DNA of 64,000 nucleotides from Minisyncoccia bacterium (lineage in GTDB: Bacteria; Patescibacteriota; Minisyncoccia; Phycocordibacterales; CAJBRS01), in assembly GCA_038215155.1 (NCBI GenBank), contig JBBQRF010000003.1, positions 65,904 to 129,903 of the forward strand, read 5' to 3'. Of this stretch, positions 1,353 to 60,453 are shown piece after piece. A model generated the notes under the pieces. The model worked only from the letters and a program-made list of their open reading frames with translations, had not been told where the DNA came from and did not search any database. The position numbers and the translations under genes are program-made. The number at the start of each line of letters is the position of its first letter. The first letter of the stretch is position 1.

Positions 1353-4037
1353 ATGAGCATTTCAATAACCAAGCATGACGGCACAAAAGAGCCATTCAAT
1401 GCCGATCAAATTAATCGTTCCATTGAACGCGCCTGCCAAGGACTAATGGATCCGATCGCGATGGTTACTCAGATTGCTACAGAAACTCGGCTAACACTAT
1501 ACGACGGCATTACTACTAAAGAATTAGATCAGGCCACCATTAATGCCTCTCTCCAAAATGTTAAAGATGATCCTGCCTATGACAAAGTAGCCACTCGCAT
1601 CCTCTTGAAAACCATGTATCGGGAAGTGCTAGGGGATTATGATAAGGACGACCAGACTGACCTAATTAAAAAGCACCGAGAAGGTTTTATTTCTTTTATA
1701 AAGAAAGGTGTAGAAGATGGGAAATTAGATTCTCGAATGGAAGAGAAATTTAATCTACGTGACTTAGCTAAGACGTTAGATATAGAAAGAGATGAACTAT
1801 TTCAATTTGCCGGACTCTCCACCTTCCTTAATCGATATGCTCTGAAAAATTTGGATCAAAATCCGCGAGAGACTCCTCAGTATTTTTTCATGCGCGTGGC
1901 CATGGGACTTTCTTATAATGAATCAAAGCCTACCGAGTGGGCTAAAAAGTTTTATAACAAGATGAGTAAGTTTGAATATATTGGTGGTGGTTCAACCAAT
2001 CTTGGCGCTGGTACTATGAAGCCAGCACTTTCAAATTGCTTTCTGTTAGAAGTACAGGACGACATGTCTCACATTGCTAAGAGCGTCTCGGACGTCATGA
2101 TGCTCTCTAAAGCGTCCGGAGGGCTTGGAGTCTCGGTCAGTAAATTGCGCGCCGCTGGCTCTCCACTGAAATCTAATAATGGAGTCTCAACCGGCGCCAC
2201 TCCCTTCGCTAAAATCATGGATACCGCCATCAGGGCTATTCAGAGAGGAGGCAAGAAAAAAGGGGCTTTGTGTTTTTATATGGAGAACTGGCATATAGAT
2301 TTTCCGGAATTTATAGATTGGAAACATAATGCTGGGGACGACTATATGAGAATGAGAACGGCTAACACCGCAGCTTATATTTCCGATGAATTCATGAAGA
2401 GGGTAAAGAGTAATGAGGCGTGGTATATGTTTGATCCGGCCGAAACTGGGGATTTAAATGAGTTATACGGACAAGCTTTTAGTAAGCGCTATGCTGAATA
2501 TGTAGAGATGGCCAATCAGGGCAAGCTTCGCATGGCCAAAAAAATGCCAGCCATGGAACTTTATCGAAAAATGCTCGTCTCTCTTCAAACGACTGGTCAC
2601 CCATGGCAGGTGTGGAAAGACACTATTAATGTACGTGCATTAAATAACAATACTGGAACCATTCACATGTCTAATCTTTGTACTGAAATTTGTTTACCTC
2701 AGGATAAGGATAATATTGCCGTCTGTAATCTGGCCTCCCTAAACCTCGCCACTCATGTAATAAATAAAGAAGTCAATTGGGGCAAACTAGAAGAATCAGT
2801 TCGTCTCGCCATCCGCCAGCTTGATAACTTAATTGACATCAACATTTTGCCAGTGGCAGAAGCGGTAAAAGCTGATCAGGAAAATCGAGCGGTTGGGCTC
2901 GGAGTAATGGGTTTTGCTGACGCTTTAGAAAAAATGGGTCTCGCATATGACAGTGAGCCAGCCTATGATTTTGCTGATCGCATTTTTGAATTTATTAGTT
3001 ACATGGCCATTGACGAGAGTGCTCGACTGGCTGAAGTGCGTGGCCCGTACAAAAACTTTAAAGGTTCGGAATGGTCAAAAGGTCATGTTCCTTTCGATAC
3101 TATTAAGAAAATTGAAATTGAGCGTGGTTTTCCAGTCACGGTAACTTTAGAAAGTAAACACAAGGGATTGAATTGGGATCTTCTTAGAGAAAAAGTAAAG
3201 AAGGGTATTAGGAATGCCACCTTAATGGCCATTGCTCCAAATGCAAACATTGGATTAATTGCAGCCACTACACCTGGAGTAGATCCACGCTTTGCACAGG
3301 TCTTTTCTCGCAATAAGATTTCTGGAAAATATTTAGACATTAATCACAACCTAGTAAGAGATTTGAAGAATCTGGGTGTCTGGGAGAAAGTAAAAGAGCT
3401 GATTATTGAATATCAAGGAGATATTTCCGAAATTGCCGAAATCCCAGAACACATTAAAGCCATCTACAAGACCTCTTTCACTACTTCACCATTAGGTTTC
3501 ATTGAAGTAGTGGCCCGTGCTCAAAAATGGATGGACCAGGCCATTTCCAGAAATATGTATCTGCGCACTCGAGACATGGATGAGACTATGAAGATTTACA
3601 ATACTGCCTGGGAGAAGGGCCTAAAAAGCACCTACTATCTTCACATGGAGCCGCGACATACTGCCGAGCAGAGTACCGTTACTGTAAATAAGGCTCAGAA
3701 AATGGGCAGGGTAGGCTTCGGTGGTTTAAGCTCAAAGCGAGCAGTAAGTGGTGAGCCAGTAATAGCACTTGATGAATCAGAGCTATTAGCAGACAGCGCG
3801 CCGGTGACGATGATAGTAGAGCCAATAGTCAGTCCGATTAAGGAGTCAGAGATTCTAGAGAAAGTAGCGGTGCTTAAGGAAATTCAAGTAGAAGTTAATC
3901 TTTTGGAAGCAACAGAAGCTAATGTGCCCCCTGTTAATTCTGTTGAAGAGAAGCCAAAACCGAAAGTAAGATTTATTGGAGATAAAACTTGTCCTAGCGA
4001 TCCCGCCGATTTGGCTCAGTGTGATAGCTGTCAATAA
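1353..4037 (+). CDS. nrdA: ribonucleoside-diphosphate reductase alpha subunit, class I with N-terminal ATP-cone
   Basis: ATP-cone N-terminus, LSNCFLLEV and SNLCTEI catalytic motifs, C-terminal Cys pairs (CDSCQ). Confidence 0.85.
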   Translation: MSISITKHDGTKEPFNADQINRSIERACQGLMDPIAMVTQIATETRLTLYDGITTKELDQATINASLQNVKDDPAYDKVATRILLKTMYREVLGDYDKDDQTDLIKKHREGFISFIKKGVEDGKLDSRMEEKFNLRDLAKTLDIERDELFQFAGLSTFLNRYALKNLDQNPRETPQYFFMRVAMGLSYNESKPTEWAKKFYNKMSKFEYIGGGSTNLGAGTMKPALSNCFLLEVQDDMSHIAKSVSDVMMLSKASGGLGVSVSKLRAAGSPLKSNNGVSTGATPFAKIMDTAIRAIQRGGKKKGALCFYMENWHIDFPEFIDWKHNAGDDYMRMRTANTAAYISDEFMKRVKSNEAWYMFDPAETGDLNELYGQAFSKRYAEYVEMANQGKLRMAKKMPAMELYRKMLVSLQTTGHPWQVWKDTINVRALNNNTGTIHMSNLCTEICLPQDKDNIAVCNLASLNLATHVINKEVNWGKLEESVRLAIRQLDNLIDINILPVAEAVKADQENRAVGLGVMGFADALEKMGLAYDSEPAYDFADRIFEFISYMAIDESARLAEVRGPYKNFKGSEWSKGHVPFDTIKKIEIERGFPVTVTLESKHKGLNWDLLREKVKKGIRNATLMAIAPNANIGLIAATTPGVDPRFAQVFSRNKISGKYLDINHNLVRDLKNLGVWEKVKELIIEYQGDISEIAEIPEHIKAIYKTSFTTSPLGFIEVVARAQKWMDQAISRNMYLRTRDMDETMKIYNTAWEKGLKSTYYLHMEPRHTAEQSTVTVNKAQKMGRVGFGGLSSKRAVSGEPVIALDESELLADSAPVTMIVEPIVSPIKESEILEKVAVLKEIQVEVNLLEATEANVPPVNSVEEKPKPKVRFIGDKTCPSDPADLAQCDSCQ

Positions 4038-5962: not shown

Positions 5963-6050
5963 TGAAAGTATAATATAAGAGCGTTGCCAGAGCAAGTAGG
6001 AGACGATATAATATTGATACATTTTTAATCGTTCCTTATCTTATTTTCAT

Positions 6051-19302: not shown

Positions 19303-20475
19303 TTAAAGGCTGTCTTGCTGCAAGGAGAGATTGCCGGTCGCCCGAAAATCTAAGACCGGTTTATGGTCATTGAGAGATTTAAAATAGCCAGCCATAGCAA
19401 TCATTACGGCATTATCTGTTGAGAGGGAGGGCTGTGGAGTTAGAAGTTTGGTCTCGCCTCCCTCCTTAATTAATTTTTGAAATTCTTGGCGCAGGTGACT
19501 ATTAGCTATTACACCCCCACCCACTATTAATGTTTTAATATTAAATTCTTCAATAGCTTTTTTGGTTTTATATATCAGCACTTCTGTAACTGCGTCCTCG
19601 AATTCTTGCGCTAACTCCTCCTTCCAGAAAGGCAAAAGTTTTTCTGCCTGCGACATTTCTCGAATTCGGTAAAGTACGGCTGTTTTCAAACCAGAAAAAG
19701 AAAAATCATAATCAGGAGAGTTTAGCATGGGACGCGGCAACTTTGTTATTTGATGATTGGATCTTTCTGAAGTTCTGGCTTTTTCCGCTAATTTAGATAT
19801 CTCAGGTCCGCCAGGATAGGGAAGTTCTAACATTCTGGCCACCTTATCAAAAGCTTCGCCGACAGCGTCGTCTCTCGTTCTGCCTAGAATTTCATATTGT
19901 TGCCAATCTCTCATCAGTACTAATTCTGTATGGCCTCCGCTAATTAAAAGGGCTAGTGCGGGAAAGGTAACGGGCTGACTCTGATCTAAGAGAACGGAAA
20001 GTATGTGGCCTTCCATATGATTAATAGGTAAAACAAGTAAATCCCACACTAAACCCAAAGCCCGAGCGAAGTTAACGCCAACCCAAAGTGCAGGCTCGAG
20101 CCCAGGACCAACTGTAACCGCAATAACGTCGATGTCGGGCTTTGGTATTGTAGGAATTACTTCTAAAAATTGTTGAAGTAATTCCGTCTCCCGTTCTAAA
20201 ATTTTTTTAATCTCTTCCTCATTTTCTATCTTTAAATCGCGTGGTTTTTCTAACTGGAACCCTTTTAATAAATCCTTCAGTAAGGGAACCAAATTTTTAG
20301 AATGCTCTCTTTTTGCCATCATTGGATAGACACCACCATATTTCTCATGGATCTTAGTTTGAGAATTAATAGCTTCAGAAATTACCTTAAAATGCGGATG
20401 GCTAAGCCCGCCATCTGCCTCCACAATTGCTAAAGCCGTCTCATCACAACTAGTTTCAATTCCAAGAATTTTCAT
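19303..20475 (-). CDS. tsaD: tRNA N6-adenosine threonylcarbamoyltransferase
   Basis: MKILGIETSCDETALAIV N-terminus (start moved from upstream Met), Kae1/TsaD core. Confidence 0.85.
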   Translation of the reverse strand: MKILGIETSCDETALAIVEADGGLSHPHFKVISEAINSQTKIHEKYGGVYPMMAKREHSKNLVPLLKDLLKGFQLEKPRDLKIENEEEIKKILERETELLQQFLEVIPTIPKPDIDVIAVTVGPGLEPALWVGVNFARALGLVWDLLVLPINHMEGHILSVLLDQSQPVTFPALALLISGGHTELVLMRDWQQYEILGRTRDDAVGEAFDKVARMLELPYPGGPEISKLAEKARTSERSNHQITKLPRPMLNSPDYDFSFSGLKTAVLYRIREMSQAEKLLPFWKEELAQEFEDAVTEVLIYKTKKAIEEFNIKTLIVGGGVIANSHLRQEFQKLIKEGGETKLLTPQPSLSTDNAVMIAMAGYFKSLNDHKPVLDFRATGNLSLQQDSL

Positions 20476-20623
20476 ATATAAAAATAGGATTCGGTCACAC
20501 ATAATTTTTTGCTAAAAATTTGTGCGACCCCGTCTCGCGCCGTCGCGCTCCGACCTTCGAATCCTCTATCACCGCCCAATGACAACCACTCGAAGTGCTC
20601 CCAGCACTTCTTGCGGATCATTG

Positions 20624-20696
20624 TGGGCGATAGAGGATTCGAACCTCTGACATCAACAACGTCAATGTTGCGCTCTACCAACTGAGCTAATCGCCC
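20624..20696 (-). tRNA. tRNA-Val (anticodon GAC)
   Basis: reverse complement GGGCGATTAGCTCAGTTGGTAGAGCGCAACATTGACGTTGTTGATGTCAGAGGTTCGAATCCTCTATCGCCCA. Confidence 0.85.
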
Positions 20697-20791
20697 TTTT
20701 AAACGCGGTAAGGGTAAACACTACCTAACAATCTTCTGACCGATCTTGGAGCATGGAAGCTACTTAGCCATAGAATTATTCTCACCCCCTA

Positions 20792-20833
20792 GACAACGTC
20801 AATGTTGCGCTCTACCAACTGAGCTAACCGCGC
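20792..20833 (-). pseudogene. tRNA-Val 5' fragment (acceptor through anticodon loop, 41 nt) duplicated about 100 nt upstream of the intact gene
   Basis: reverse complement GCGCGGTTAGCTCAGTTGGTAGAGCGCAACATTGACGTTGTC matches the intact tRNA-Val except the acceptor bases, then diverges; no T-arm follows. Confidence 0.6.
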
Positions 20834-21328
20834 TTAGAATCAATTTATCATTTTATATTTACCTAAACAAATTTCCCAAAAAAACCGCCTTTGTATAAAG
20901 CCTTGCTCCGTCTATTAGAGGGTGCCTAAGGTTATAACCTATTTAAATAAAACCTAAAAGTTAGATTGAATAGCTTGAAATATTCCTTTATTTTGCTCGA
21001 CAGTGTAATTATAAGCGTCGTTAAAATTGAATTTAAAAAAAGATAGATATACCCCTAGAATTATTAAAGCAACTAAGTAAAAAACTTTTGACTTCATAAA
21101 GTTATTATAGACCGGTTTGCAACAGATGAATATTGGCTGTGTGGGTAGGGATCTAACCCTAGAGAGTCTCTGGTGAATTCATGCCCACGATCACAGATAA
21201 TTTTCTCGCCGATGGTATCCGAAATCCTATGCGTCGCCAGCACAAACGTCTTTTGTTTAGCCATAACTCACAAAAGTCTAAGTGCTTCGACATCACGAAT
21301 ATATAGTCGCTTCGCTCGTTATATTCTG

Positions 21329-21564: not shown

Positions 21565-21785
21565 CTGGTTCGAATAATTCTATGGTAAGAAGCCCTAAAC
21601 TCCAATGTATGTGGCAGGATGTTTTGAAGAATTTTCCTCCCGCCTCCGCAAAAATAAGGAACGAAGTGACTATATTTTTGCAGCCCTTCGCCCGAGGGCT
21701 CAGGATCTTCGAGATGCCGCAAAGACAAATTTTTATATATTTACAATGGTGCAGAAAATTTATTTTACCCCAACCTTCGAATTAA

Positions 21786-39679: not shown

Positions 39680-39709
39680 GTGTATGTAGTTGATGTGTTG
39701 GACCCGCTT

Positions 39710-39759
39710 TAAAAAAATCAAAATAAATTGATTTTTTTAAAGCGGGTCCACCCAGTAGG
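39710..39759. repeat. perfect 22-bp palindrome ggacccgctttaaaaaaatcaa / ttgatttttttaaagcgggtcc in the tRNA spacer
   Basis: exact inverted repeat with 6-nt loop; right arm overlaps the 3' end of tRNA-Lys; likely terminator or processing hairpin. Confidence 0.7.
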
Positions 39760-39829: not shown

Positions 39830-39958
39830 ATGTGGTCACGAATCACTAAGTCTGCTCATTCGCTTCTAATTATAGCGAATTGCGCGGACTAAGTGTTCGC
39901 GACCCCGCCTCGTCTGTCTCGCAAAACCTCGACATGACTGCGGCCGGCACAAGTCCGC

Positions 39959-40075: not shown

Positions 40076-40084
40076 ATATTAGCT

Positions 40085-40120
40085 TAAAGTCCGTAAAGTC
40101 CGTAAAGTCCGTAAAGTCCG
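40085..40120. repeat. 9-bp tandem repeat (taaagtccg) x4 in the tRNA spacer
   Basis: four exact head-to-tail copies, fifth degenerate (taaagattc); followed by tttatagac x2. Confidence 0.8.
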
Positions 40121-40174
40121 TAAAGATTCTGCTTTATAGACTTTATAGACCTTATGACTTTTTCGACTATCATG

Positions 40175-48666: not shown

Positions 48667-49215
48667 TCAATCCTTAACGAGGTTGATTAATGTTATAAAA
48701 TCTTCTGTCATACGCGAAATCCTTATAATATATTTGGGAGTTTTTGTAACTGATATCTTATAAATTTTTGGTACAAAATCTAGATTTTGTACCATGATCA
48801 TCACATCATTAGCAAGATCTTTTATAATTGTTGTAAAATTTACCATTTTATATCCACGGTCATAATATATAGAACCATCTGTTTGGAACAAGCCACGTAA
48901 ACACTCAACTGAGTAATTTCTATTTTCTTTGATCCAATCTGGAACTCTAACATTCTGCATAAACTTTGACCCGTTCTTCGCTTTCCACCCCAAGATGCTT
49001 TCTAGATGATTTGAATAGCAGTAAACATCAAGAGCCTTCGCTTTTCTTCTGGCCACAGATACTTTATTGTCCGGAAGTAATTTCTGAAGCGATTCTCTAA
49101 TCGTTTTAATTAAATTAGGATACCCTAAATCACAAGTAATTCTTAATCTTGTAGCCCTATTATTTGAATTTGATAAATTGCCATCACCAATGGAGAGCCC
49201 AATAACATAGGCCAT
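48667..49215 (-). CDS. LAGLIDADG family homing endonuclease (double-motif, single chain)
   Basis: start moved to MAYVIGLSIGDGNL (motif 1) because the longer ORF runs through tRNA-Leu on the same strand; second motif LRGLFQTDGSIY. Confidence 0.7.
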   Translation of the reverse strand: MAYVIGLSIGDGNLSNSNNRATRLRITCDLGYPNLIKTIRESLQKLLPDNKVSVARRKAKALDVYCYSNHLESILGWKAKNGSKFMQNVRVPDWIKENRNYSVECLRGLFQTDGSIYYDRGYKMVNFTTIIKDLANDVMIMVQNLDFVPKIYKISVTKTPKYIIRISRMTEDFITLINLVKD

Positions 49216-49244
49216 TAATTTTAAATCAGTACTTAACCTCTTAG

Positions 49245-60063: not shown

Positions 60064-60080
60064 ATTTGCAGCGTAATATT

Positions 60081-60180
60081 TGCGGGATCGTCTAATGGTA
60101 GGCTCCCTGTTTACACACGACGCATTGCGAGTGTTCCAGTAAACAGCAGTGCCGATGACTCATTCATCGGCAGTCCGCAA
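60081..60180 (+). pseudogene. tRNA-Gln 5' fragment (22 nt identical) fused to a 100-nt hairpin-rich pseudo-tRNA-like segment
   Basis: TGCGGGATCGTCTAATGGTAGG is identical to the start of tRNA-Gln at 60232; then hairpins ctgtttac..gtaaacag and gccgatga ctcat tcatcggc, ending gTCCGCA (acceptor-complement-like). Confidence 0.5.
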
Positions 60181-60231: not shown

Positions 60232-60302
60232 TGCGGGATCGTCTAATGGTAGGACAACGGATTTTGGATCCGTTTATCTAGGTTCGAATCCTAGTCCCGC
60301 AG
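60232..60302 (+). tRNA. tRNA-Gln (anticodon TTG), U1:A72
   Basis: TGCGGGATCGTCTAATGGTAGGACAACGGATTTTGGATCCGTTTATCTAGGTTCGAATCCTAGTCCCGCAG. Confidence 0.85.
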
Positions 60303-60453
60303 CCGCCAATTTTTAAGAAGAGAATCGACTATAAAAATTGAGCGCGTCGCCGCTCCTCATGAGGCGACGTAGACTATTTTTTAACGAAGGAGGAAACGAC
60401 TGAATATAAAATTTCAGCGCGCCGACGAATCTTTGAGTTGGCATAATCAAACT

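Follow-up and report, generated by a model that had tools for sequence, protein, structure and literature searches.

Among described systems, the closest to the locus reported here are the integrative elements that target transfer RNA (tRNA) genes (the T-loop class of tyrosine-recombinase islands and prophages, and tycheposon-like islands), for which direct repeats running from the T-loop to the tRNA 3' end are reportedly the textbook signature of the T-loop sublocation class; the short repeats related in character to miniature inverted-repeat transposable elements (MITE-like repeats: Correia, ERIC, RUP and REP/REPIN); template-switch or fold-back rearrangements, whose typical products are direct-inverted-direct layouts; and intron-containing tRNAs, whether archaeal non-canonical or bacterial group I. 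Our locus is that of tRNA-Val(GAC), located upstream of the TsaD gene in a 64,000-nucleotide (nt) stretch of contig JBBQRF010000003.1 (“the window”, to whose first letter all coordinates refer unless a comparison locus is named). It consists of an interrupted paralogue of tRNA-Val together with a composite insertion. The T-loop is the centre of each, and each is built from sequence families that recur at other tRNAs. In kind, the elements are tRNA-targeting insertions combined with MITE-like structured repeats, in a form of which we found no description in the literature. Our favoured reading, held with moderate confidence, is that two families of small insertion elements lacking open reading frames (ORFs) land in tRNA T-loops of this Paceibacteria lineage; relatives carry the repeat beside many different tRNAs, and the repeats therefore appear to target tRNA genes. 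Comparisons were made with approximately 0.4 Mb of fetched related loci, designated by L-numbers, among which L220 represents the nearest relative (TsaD 68% identical), while L001 and L002 are Logan contigs of SRR19962015, an independent assembly of the same organism.

The intact gene lies at 20624-20696 on the minus strand, as an earlier note on this stretch had proposed. It is called by ARAGORN and scores 71.3 bits against Rfam RF00005 (tRNA membership was taken from either the gathering threshold of 29 bits or an ARAGORN call). Its sequence, allele A, has the form GGGCGAT...AGAGG TTCGAAT CCTCT ATCGCCC, with acceptor strands GGGCGAT/ATCGCCC, T-stem strands AGAGG/CCTCT and no encoded CCA; the same allele is found in L003 and L007, where the T-loop reads TTCGAGT. 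Directly after the gene stands CAATGA (20618-20623, minus), composed of CA and the ATGA of the TsaD start. TsaD itself occupies 19303-20475 (minus), with its ATG at 20475 and a start reading ATGAAAATTC. In L220, tRNA-Val abuts the TsaD ATG (at 6001 of that locus) and the junction reads ...GCGCACAATGAAAATTC; the CAATGA of the window is thus best read, from sequence comparison, as a fossil of the ancestral tRNA-Val/TsaD junction.

Between this functional gene and TsaD there is now a composite insertion, comprising in order a loop segment, an inverted arm, a 63-nt core and the start of a direct tRNA copy. The loop segment (20583-20617, minus, as read from the sequence) separates the tRNA from the arm and contains the perfect 8-bp hairpin GAAGTGCT-CCC-AGCACTTC (20592-20610) that the earlier note had picked out; by eye, such segments differ among copies, apart from a hairpin GCAAA-CTGC-TTTGC that recurs in some. 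The antisense arm (20556-20582, minus) is the complementary strand, in reverse, of the tRNA 3' part beginning with T54 and of the AATGA in the trailer, with 15 nt exact, 25 nt at 84% complementarity and 27 nt when small bulges are allowed; its sense reading is ATCACCGCCCA, against ATCGCCCA in the tRNA. Its start coincides with T54 and no base separates it from the core (p < 0.005). This inverted copy had already been recognised and is real, but the plus-strand coordinates first given for it (20568-20588) were 10 too high, the string in question being at 20558-20578. Since the arm holds the complement of AATGA, five of the six bases of the CAATGA junction kept in L220, it was copied from local sequence, and the copying would have taken place while tRNA-Val and the start codon of TsaD still adjoined each other. 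On the far side of the core, the direct copy survives as the remnant GAATCCT (T-loop plus T-stem 3' strand; 20486-20492, minus), at flank offset 0 and tRNA position +3 from T54, which together with the shared C20493, the last base of the core, forms the 8-mer CGAATCCT. Its 7 exact nt reach p = 0.05 when taken alone; ATTTTTATAT and then the TsaD ATG follow it. We also considered whether the GC-rich trailer might be a decayed tRNA-Pro(CGG), as found in L005, L007 and L012, and rejected this because only the 7-mer CGGAGCG is similar and the region is that of the core.

The core (20493-20555, minus) has the layout GGTCGGAG-CGCG ACGG CGCG-AGAC-GGGGTCGCACAAATTTTT AGC AAAAAATTATGTGTGACC and scores 88 bits (E = 4e-17) with a covariance model, R1, which identifies 42 copies in the fetched loci besides three in the window. 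One of the other two window copies is divergent (39834-39945, minus; 31.4 bits, E = 7e-5) and lies between tRNA-Leu(UAA) and tRNA-Lys(CUU), where an arm, CTTGTGCC, pairs with the tRNA-Leu 3' end and trailer across the hairpin GCAAACTGCTTTGC; the other (50644-50736, minus; 47.9 bits, E = 2e-8) lies 3' of the topA terminator with no adjacent tRNA. An exact 28-mer of the core is present in 32 metagenome contigs and in no viral contig, and L015 carries a core 3' of tRNA-Glu with 31 nt identical, though its TsaD is only ~51% identical. Sixteen distinct core sequences align to a structure of two hairpins in which 97% of cells pair, and compensatory double changes support the conserved fold at 11 of 22 pairs overall and at 10 of 15 in the long hairpin 2 (13 of the 16 sequences were collected via one exact 28-mer, meaning that hairpin 1 is not independently sampled). 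The covariation score, 0.348, was reached by none of 500 shuffles and slid controls scored far lower; one G.U pair in hairpin 2 is invariant in all 16 sequences. Searches of the core against Rfam 15 returned nothing at gathering score in the window or in ten loci, and nothing credible was found at E <= 10 or E <= 1 for the tRNA-Val locus or for L068, L083 and L120, making the core a candidate structured RNA family absent from Rfam.

A phage origin of the core was considered and rejected: the exact 28-mer is absent from viral contigs and, of a looser pattern with at least 120 matching stretches there, the 80 listed loci were screened with the model and yielded one real match. L120 (IMGVR_UViG_3300033463_005745, labelled viral) contains at 2900-3319 a tandem array of arm-core-tRNA 3'-end units (repeated CAAATCCCTCCC...), with no intact tRNA within the 3.3 kb examined. 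The exact core is most commonly found not beside a tRNA but in a conserved GC-rich region of the form CCCGCCCGC-loop-GCGGGCGGG, then ...GGGGTGAGAAGCGAATACTTGGAGCTTCGCAAG-core (L073, L074, L075, L077, L079, L089, L092, L096 and L097). A direct repeat encloses this region, with ATTCCTCCCCAGA on its upstream side and ATTCCATTCCCCCAGA on its downstream side, and the region has no Rfam match.

Like the MITE-like repeats, these insertions are short, lack ORFs and exist in several copies (three in 64 kb); they occupy intergenic positions, often immediately 3' of genes, are strongly structured and are also found in tandem, perhaps with one nested copy. They differ in that their “terminal inverted repeats” are copied from the target tRNA and change with each tRNA, in that their duplications span 17-60 nt rather than 2-9 nt, and in their strict orientation to the tRNA. 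The only constant termini of the core are GGYC...GRCC, and we know of no cognate transposase or RAYT.

Cores are found 3' of at least nine tRNA identities (Val, Glu, Ser, Gly, Tyr, Ile, Lys(CUU), Lys(UUU) and several Leu), and every tRNA-adjacent core has the same orientation as its tRNA. A T-loop geometry is common to the copies at six tRNA identities (seven loci). The arm begins exactly at T54 and abuts the core at tRNA-Val of the window, L015-Glu, L019-Ser, L020-Gly, L086-Tyr and L087-Tyr, always matching the local tRNA. The direct copy begins at the first flank base with tRNA position +3 (C56/R57) at tRNA-Val of the window and in L015, L020, L085-Leu and L087, and 4 nt further out, owing to a mismatch, in L019. 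Direct copies run 17-22 nt and end just past the tRNA 3' end; in L015, L019, L020, L085 and L087 they are perfect repeats of the attachment-site (att) type, in the position that the remnant occupies in the window, where only GAATCCT is left. An intact tRNA is thus retained upstream of the core. The two flanks of the core are complementary strands of one DNA end, as would result from a T-loop break with a stagger of 2-3 nt. A mirror-image arrangement at the D-loop, in which the 5' part of the tRNA and even its promoter are duplicated, is present in L072 and L076/L090.

A duplication upstream of tRNA-Gln in the window mirrors these D-loop-side cases. At 60080-60102 (plus), 151 nt upstream of the intact gene (60232-60304), 23 nt exactly repeat the start of tRNA-Gln (its first 22 bases and the base before them), and the preceding TAATAT is repeated too; after the fragment comes a highly structured 129-nt insert containing TCCGCAA, complementary to the fragment start. 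The insert was tried as a relative of the core or of the fetched loci and gave no match. At 39680-39744 (minus) and in the L085 cluster, the tRNA trailers fold into long palindromic hairpins that are rich in A/T and resemble terminators. Their stems start within the tRNA 3' end (e.g. GGACCCGCTTTAAAAAAATCAA...TTGATTTTTTTAAAGCGGGTCC), and they occur without a core; such hairpins appear to be a general trait of these genomes. The spacer between tRNA-Cys and tRNA-Leu(UAA) (~40077-40173, minus) holds four tandem copies of a 9-nt unit, CTTTACGGA (equivalently ACGGACTTT), preceded by two of GTCTATAAA.

Cores also vary in their presence between genomes. L220, L003 and L009 have none at tRNA-Val, which in these loci is 1-28 nt from TsaD. 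Within the cluster Cys-Leu(UAA)-Lys-Leu(UAG), the core follows Leu(UAA) in the window and Leu(UAG) in L085, whose site after Leu(UAA) is empty. The earlier note had suggested comparing relatives for a variably present block between the tRNA-Val duplicates: a block is variably present, but it is the module downstream of tRNA-Val, and no element separates the two tRNA-Val copies. Tandem core copies are found in L083, L086/L087 and L120, and the L068 copy is embedded in a longer conserved segment rich in G+C, perhaps as a nested insertion. Inserts span 50-250 nt, and no ORF was found in or beside the elements. Elements of the IS200/IS605 or IS91 type depend on an HUH transposase and show a constant tetra- or pentanucleotide where they join the target; by eye, no constant left-flank tetranucleotide is apparent across the core copies, and no genome-wide transposase search was made.

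The second part of the locus, upstream of the intact gene, is a full second tRNA-Val(GAC) gene, allele B, whose T-loop is replaced by a different element, which we call element 2. The unit (20703-20833, minus) was delimited by strand matches to allele-B genes, and the predicted fold pairs its two ends. It reads GCGCGGT-TAGCTCAGTTGGTAGAGCGCAACATTGACGTTGT-CTA-GGGGG-[70 nt]-CCCTT-ACCGCGT, and comprises tRNA positions 1-41 (20793-20833), both T-stem strands (5' GGGGG at 20785-20789 and 3' CCCTT at 20710-20714) on either side of the insert (20715-20784), and the acceptor 3' strand ACCGCGT (20703-20709), with the variable region shortened and the anticodon stem down to 3 bp. The earlier note had described a duplicated 41-nt 5' fragment followed by non-tRNA sequence ending in an acceptor-complement-like ACCGCGU. 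Both the exact copy (20793-20827 matches tRNA positions 7-41 at 35/35, E ~4e-15) and the acceptor complement hold up; what had been taken for a fragment is, however, a complete gene with its T-loop interrupted. The acceptor 5' strand, GCGCGGT, differs from the GGGCGAT of the intact gene. Allele B, which is intact in L009, L018 and L220, has the form GCGCGGT...GGGGG TTCGAAT CCCTC ACCGCGC; the acceptor 5' and T-stem 5' strands of the upstream unit are identical to it, and the 3' strands are each one base off (CCCTT vs CCCTC and ACCGCGT vs ACCGCGC). These matches identify the unit as a complete second gene in which the 70-nt insert has taken the place of the T-loop. L005, L007, L009 and L012 have the same sequence at positions 8-41, and L003 departs from it at one base; as the stretch is thus conserved across genera, the 35-nt identity reflects conservation and is not evidence of recent duplication.

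The unit receives no ARAGORN call and no Rfam match even at E <= 10. With element 2 in place of its T-loop it is a pseudogene, and its function is supplied by the adjacent allele-A tRNA-Val. Intron-containing tRNAs resemble it in having an insert at a defined position and in retaining the T-stem and acceptor strands. Here, by contrast, excision of the insert restores no TTCRANY T-loop (none of the three copies of element 2 leaves this motif between matching T-stem strands), damage extends to the anticodon stem and variable loop, neither a bulge-helix-bulge nor a group I fold is present, and ARAGORN and Rfam are silent. We accordingly rejected a split or permuted tRNA or a T-loop intron, as the T-loop cannot be restored and no fold is conserved.

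The first copy of element 2 is the 70-nt insert at 20715-20784 (minus; TGAGAATAATTCTATGGCTAAGTAG...GTGTTTA). A second is at 21566-21649 (plus), in the trailer of, and directly 3' of, intact tRNA-Ser(CGA); after it comes CCTCC-CGCCTCC-GC, with which a tRNA-Ser of another allele (L012 type) ends. The third (L220, 5768-5905) interrupts a tRNA-Val upstream of TsaD. The three are 66-74% identical, every pair being significant against shuffles (p < 0.002), and each is flanked by a T-stem 5' strand and a T-stem 3' strand. The closest pair, window-Ser and L220-Val, joins different tRNAs in different genomes, favouring independent T-loop insertions over a single ancient pseudogene inherited by both. 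L220 has the order interrupted tRNA-Val, 24 nt, intact tRNA-Val, TsaD, with the alleles swapped relative to the window (A interrupted and B intact in L220; B interrupted and A intact in the window). The earlier note had stated that its reading would fall if relatives showed the same arrangement with no insertion/deletion polymorphism; this is half the case, as the interrupted-plus-intact pair does exist in L220 but is not seen in more distant relatives. No convincing conserved fold was found for element 2 (consensus -2.6 kcal/mol over the copies), and its copies gave no match to the core model or to any fetched locus. Kinship with a larger GC-rich outer element (GGGGTGAG...GCAAGGTCGG) was tried and rejected, local alignment not being significant beyond a 10-mer.

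Taking these observations together, we infer that the elements are non-autonomous mobile elements entering at breaks in the conserved T-loop, and that the copies observed are those in which a working tRNA has been maintained, whether through duplication on the spot or through a neighbouring paralogue. The core would enter at a T-loop break, the target GGTTCRANYC being nearly universal, and its flanks would be both complementary strands of the one broken DNA end with its 2-3-nt stagger, such that fold-back or fill-in synthesis would have produced the arm in place. An insertion would survive only where its local duplication restores a complete tRNA, and the mobilising enzyme would be encoded elsewhere. 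One possible source of breaks in tRNA genes is the product of a LAGLIDADG_3 homing-endonuclease-like ORF (48667-49365, minus; Pfam 5.5e-13), which starts directly 3' of tRNA-Leu(CAA) (49244-49326) and overlaps it. The strand-specific structure of the core and its invariant G.U pair suggest that it acts as a folded single strand, either RNA or single-stranded DNA. A bolder extension, which we offer tentatively and consider rather unlikely, is that the core is the active part of an undescribed mobile nucleic acid of Patescibacteria: the folded single strand would be joined to a staggered break in the T-loop (sometimes the D-loop) and cap one DNA end, after which fold-back or fill-in would make the inverted arm and the long direct duplication and thereby regenerate the tRNA, a self-healing insertion into essential genes. 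Such an element might be retro-copied, with its junction set by the T-loop.

Several points weigh against mobile elements that enter at the T-loop. The best relative has only 68% TsaD identity, and no recent pair of empty and filled sites and no excision product was seen. The window ORFs examined, a subset of the total, are housekeeping genes apart from the LAGLIDADG_3 ORF, and they link neither element to a recombinase, transposase or reverse transcriptase. In the window, the third, direct copy of the target extends over only 7-8 nt. Cores that follow terminator-like hairpins and have no T-loop junction (the topA copy and three whose hairpin takes in the tRNA 3' end, namely that at Leu(UAA) of the window, L070 and L084) imply that T-loop entry is not the sole mode. 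Our reading does not account for the swapped A and B alleles of the window and L220. Finally, the interrupted-plus-intact pair is kept in two genera, and the interrupted unit could therefore be functional, while the strong covariation of the core would fit a purely functional RNA as well.

This last consideration leads to the first alternative, that arm and core are a functional cis-acting RNA, a processing, termination or regulatory device for the tRNA-Val/TsaD transcript, with the arm sequestering the tRNA 3' half or forming an RNase III duplex and the interrupted unit serving as a structured leader or promoter. We consider this unlikely, despite the strong strand-specific covariation, the co-orientation of all tRNA-adjacent cores with their tRNAs and the retention of the interrupted-plus-intact pair in L220. 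When the tRNA and trailer are folded as one RNA (-101.3 kcal/mol, z = -8.8 vs shuffles), the tRNA 3' half is predicted to lie in a long duplex with its inverted copy, as this explanation would have it; yet the core is missing at tRNA-Val in most relatives, lies beside different tRNAs in different genomes and also away from tRNAs, and is often separated from the tRNA by terminator-like hairpins. Across the anticodon loop and insert of the interrupted unit there is a sigma-70-like match, TTGACG-16 nt-AATAAT (10/12), but its promoter-like spacing is lost in L220 (21 nt), and element 2 has no conserved fold.

A quite improbable second alternative dispenses with mobile elements altogether and invokes tandem tRNA duplication, decay and template switching at T-arm and terminator palindromes, with the core a separate intergenic RNA having a tendency to occur on the 3' side of genes. 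The locus does share with template-switch and fold-back rearrangements a target present three times (direct, inverted, direct) and a symmetry axis through a hairpin; moreover, terminator hairpins that include the tRNA 3' end occur without a core (the Lys and Leu trailers in the window and L085), and two tRNA-Val alleles coexist in the clade. Such rearrangements do not, however, account for a foreign conserved 63-nt module placed precisely at the inverted/direct junction, with that junction fixed in the T-loop across six tRNA identities in seven loci, nor for homologous copies of element 2 in three separate T-loops, nor for tandem core arrays and a copy perhaps nested in a longer element.

Still less probable is the classical explanation, that large T-loop elements such as prophages or islands have been mostly deleted and have left attL/attR remnants as scars. 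In its favour are the direct repeats from T-loop to 3' end in L015, L020, L022, L085 and L087, and the window elements share with tRNA-targeting integrative elements the T-loop target, this same repeat, the retention of an intact tRNA and the stacking of successive insertions in tandem. They are unlike them in the small size of the insert (~120-250 nt), in that what lies between the repeats is always a stretch of 50-250 nt holding one conserved core, in that no integrase or cargo is present in any of more than 40 copies, and in having an inverted copy of the target inside the insertion, which is foreign to the att model; one integrase could not serve nine or more tRNA targets as well as non-tRNA sites, and the viral comparisons above (no exact 28-mer and one model match among the 80 viral loci listed) give no support. 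The earlier note had seen here the signature of integrative elements or of tRNA-mediated rearrangement. This was right in kind, as both features are T-loop-centred scars and the tRNA cluster is rearranged among relatives (the Glu/Ser pair is found in both orientations, and tRNA-Val is inverted in L020 and L223); the anatomy of an integrative element did not stand, there being no integrase, cargo or kilobase-scale island, and its fragment and identity being those of a whole gene and of conservation, as described above.

Chance matches or assembly chimeras, for which one might cite the breaks of the Logan contigs at repeat edges and the fact that inverted chimeras can arise in amplified DNA, are scarcely credible given repeat E-values far beyond chance, the same architecture in independent NCBI, JGI and ENA assemblies, and confirmation of the core-TsaD junction by L001. 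The breaks, at ~20553 (the 5' edge of the 63-nt core) and ~21654 (a repeat, GCGAAGYGACTATA), are as expected if both are multicopy repeats in the sample.

The window has ~41% G+C and contains 14 tRNA genes and the RNase P RNA, and the neighbours of the locus are housekeeping genes (ValRS, TsaD, DUF4385, thioredoxin reductase and FtsZ). The best matches to TsaD, from metagenome-assembled genomes of Paceibacterota, are 65-68% identical, and among 5.8 billion proteins no relative exceeds 68%. Judged by these relatives, the source is a small-genome member of the Patescibacteria (candidate phyla radiation, CPR) in the Paceibacterota/Parcubacteria group; a plastid or other organelle origin was ruled out on the same grounds. 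The motif GCGAAGYGACTATA(T/A)A occurs just 3' of tRNA-Glu, tRNA-Ser and tRNA-Gln, at 21302-21315 (minus), 21661-21674 (plus) and 60320-60333 (plus), and also in L099 and L022; it may be promoter-like or a recombination site. Its first two window copies form a 28-nt inverted repeat (arms 21298-21325 and 21651-21678, with GCGAAGYGACTATA in each) enclosing the tRNA-Glu/tRNA-Ser pair. A 56-codon ORF (MAKQKTFVLATHR...; 21094-21264, minus) without a Pfam match separates tRNA-Glu from the interrupted tRNA-Val and is followed by a terminator-like hairpin, GCCTTTATACAAAGGC, and a T-run; L220 has a DUF817 gene in the equivalent place.

If our favoured reading of two T-loop-entering element families is true, tRNA fragments and interrupted tRNAs near intact ones in metagenome-assembled genomes would be neither assembly noise nor necessarily prophage att sites, a warning for annotation. 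It would also raise the question of which enzyme breaks T-loops, for example a homing endonuclease like that encoded beside tRNA-Leu. Streamlined CPR genomes, with single-copy tRNA genes and almost no recognisable transposons, would be hosts to families of tiny ORF-less elements that land on the tRNA T-loop, the most conserved sequence in biology, and leave the gene working, and these elements would represent an unrecognised source of genome rearrangement in Patescibacteria.

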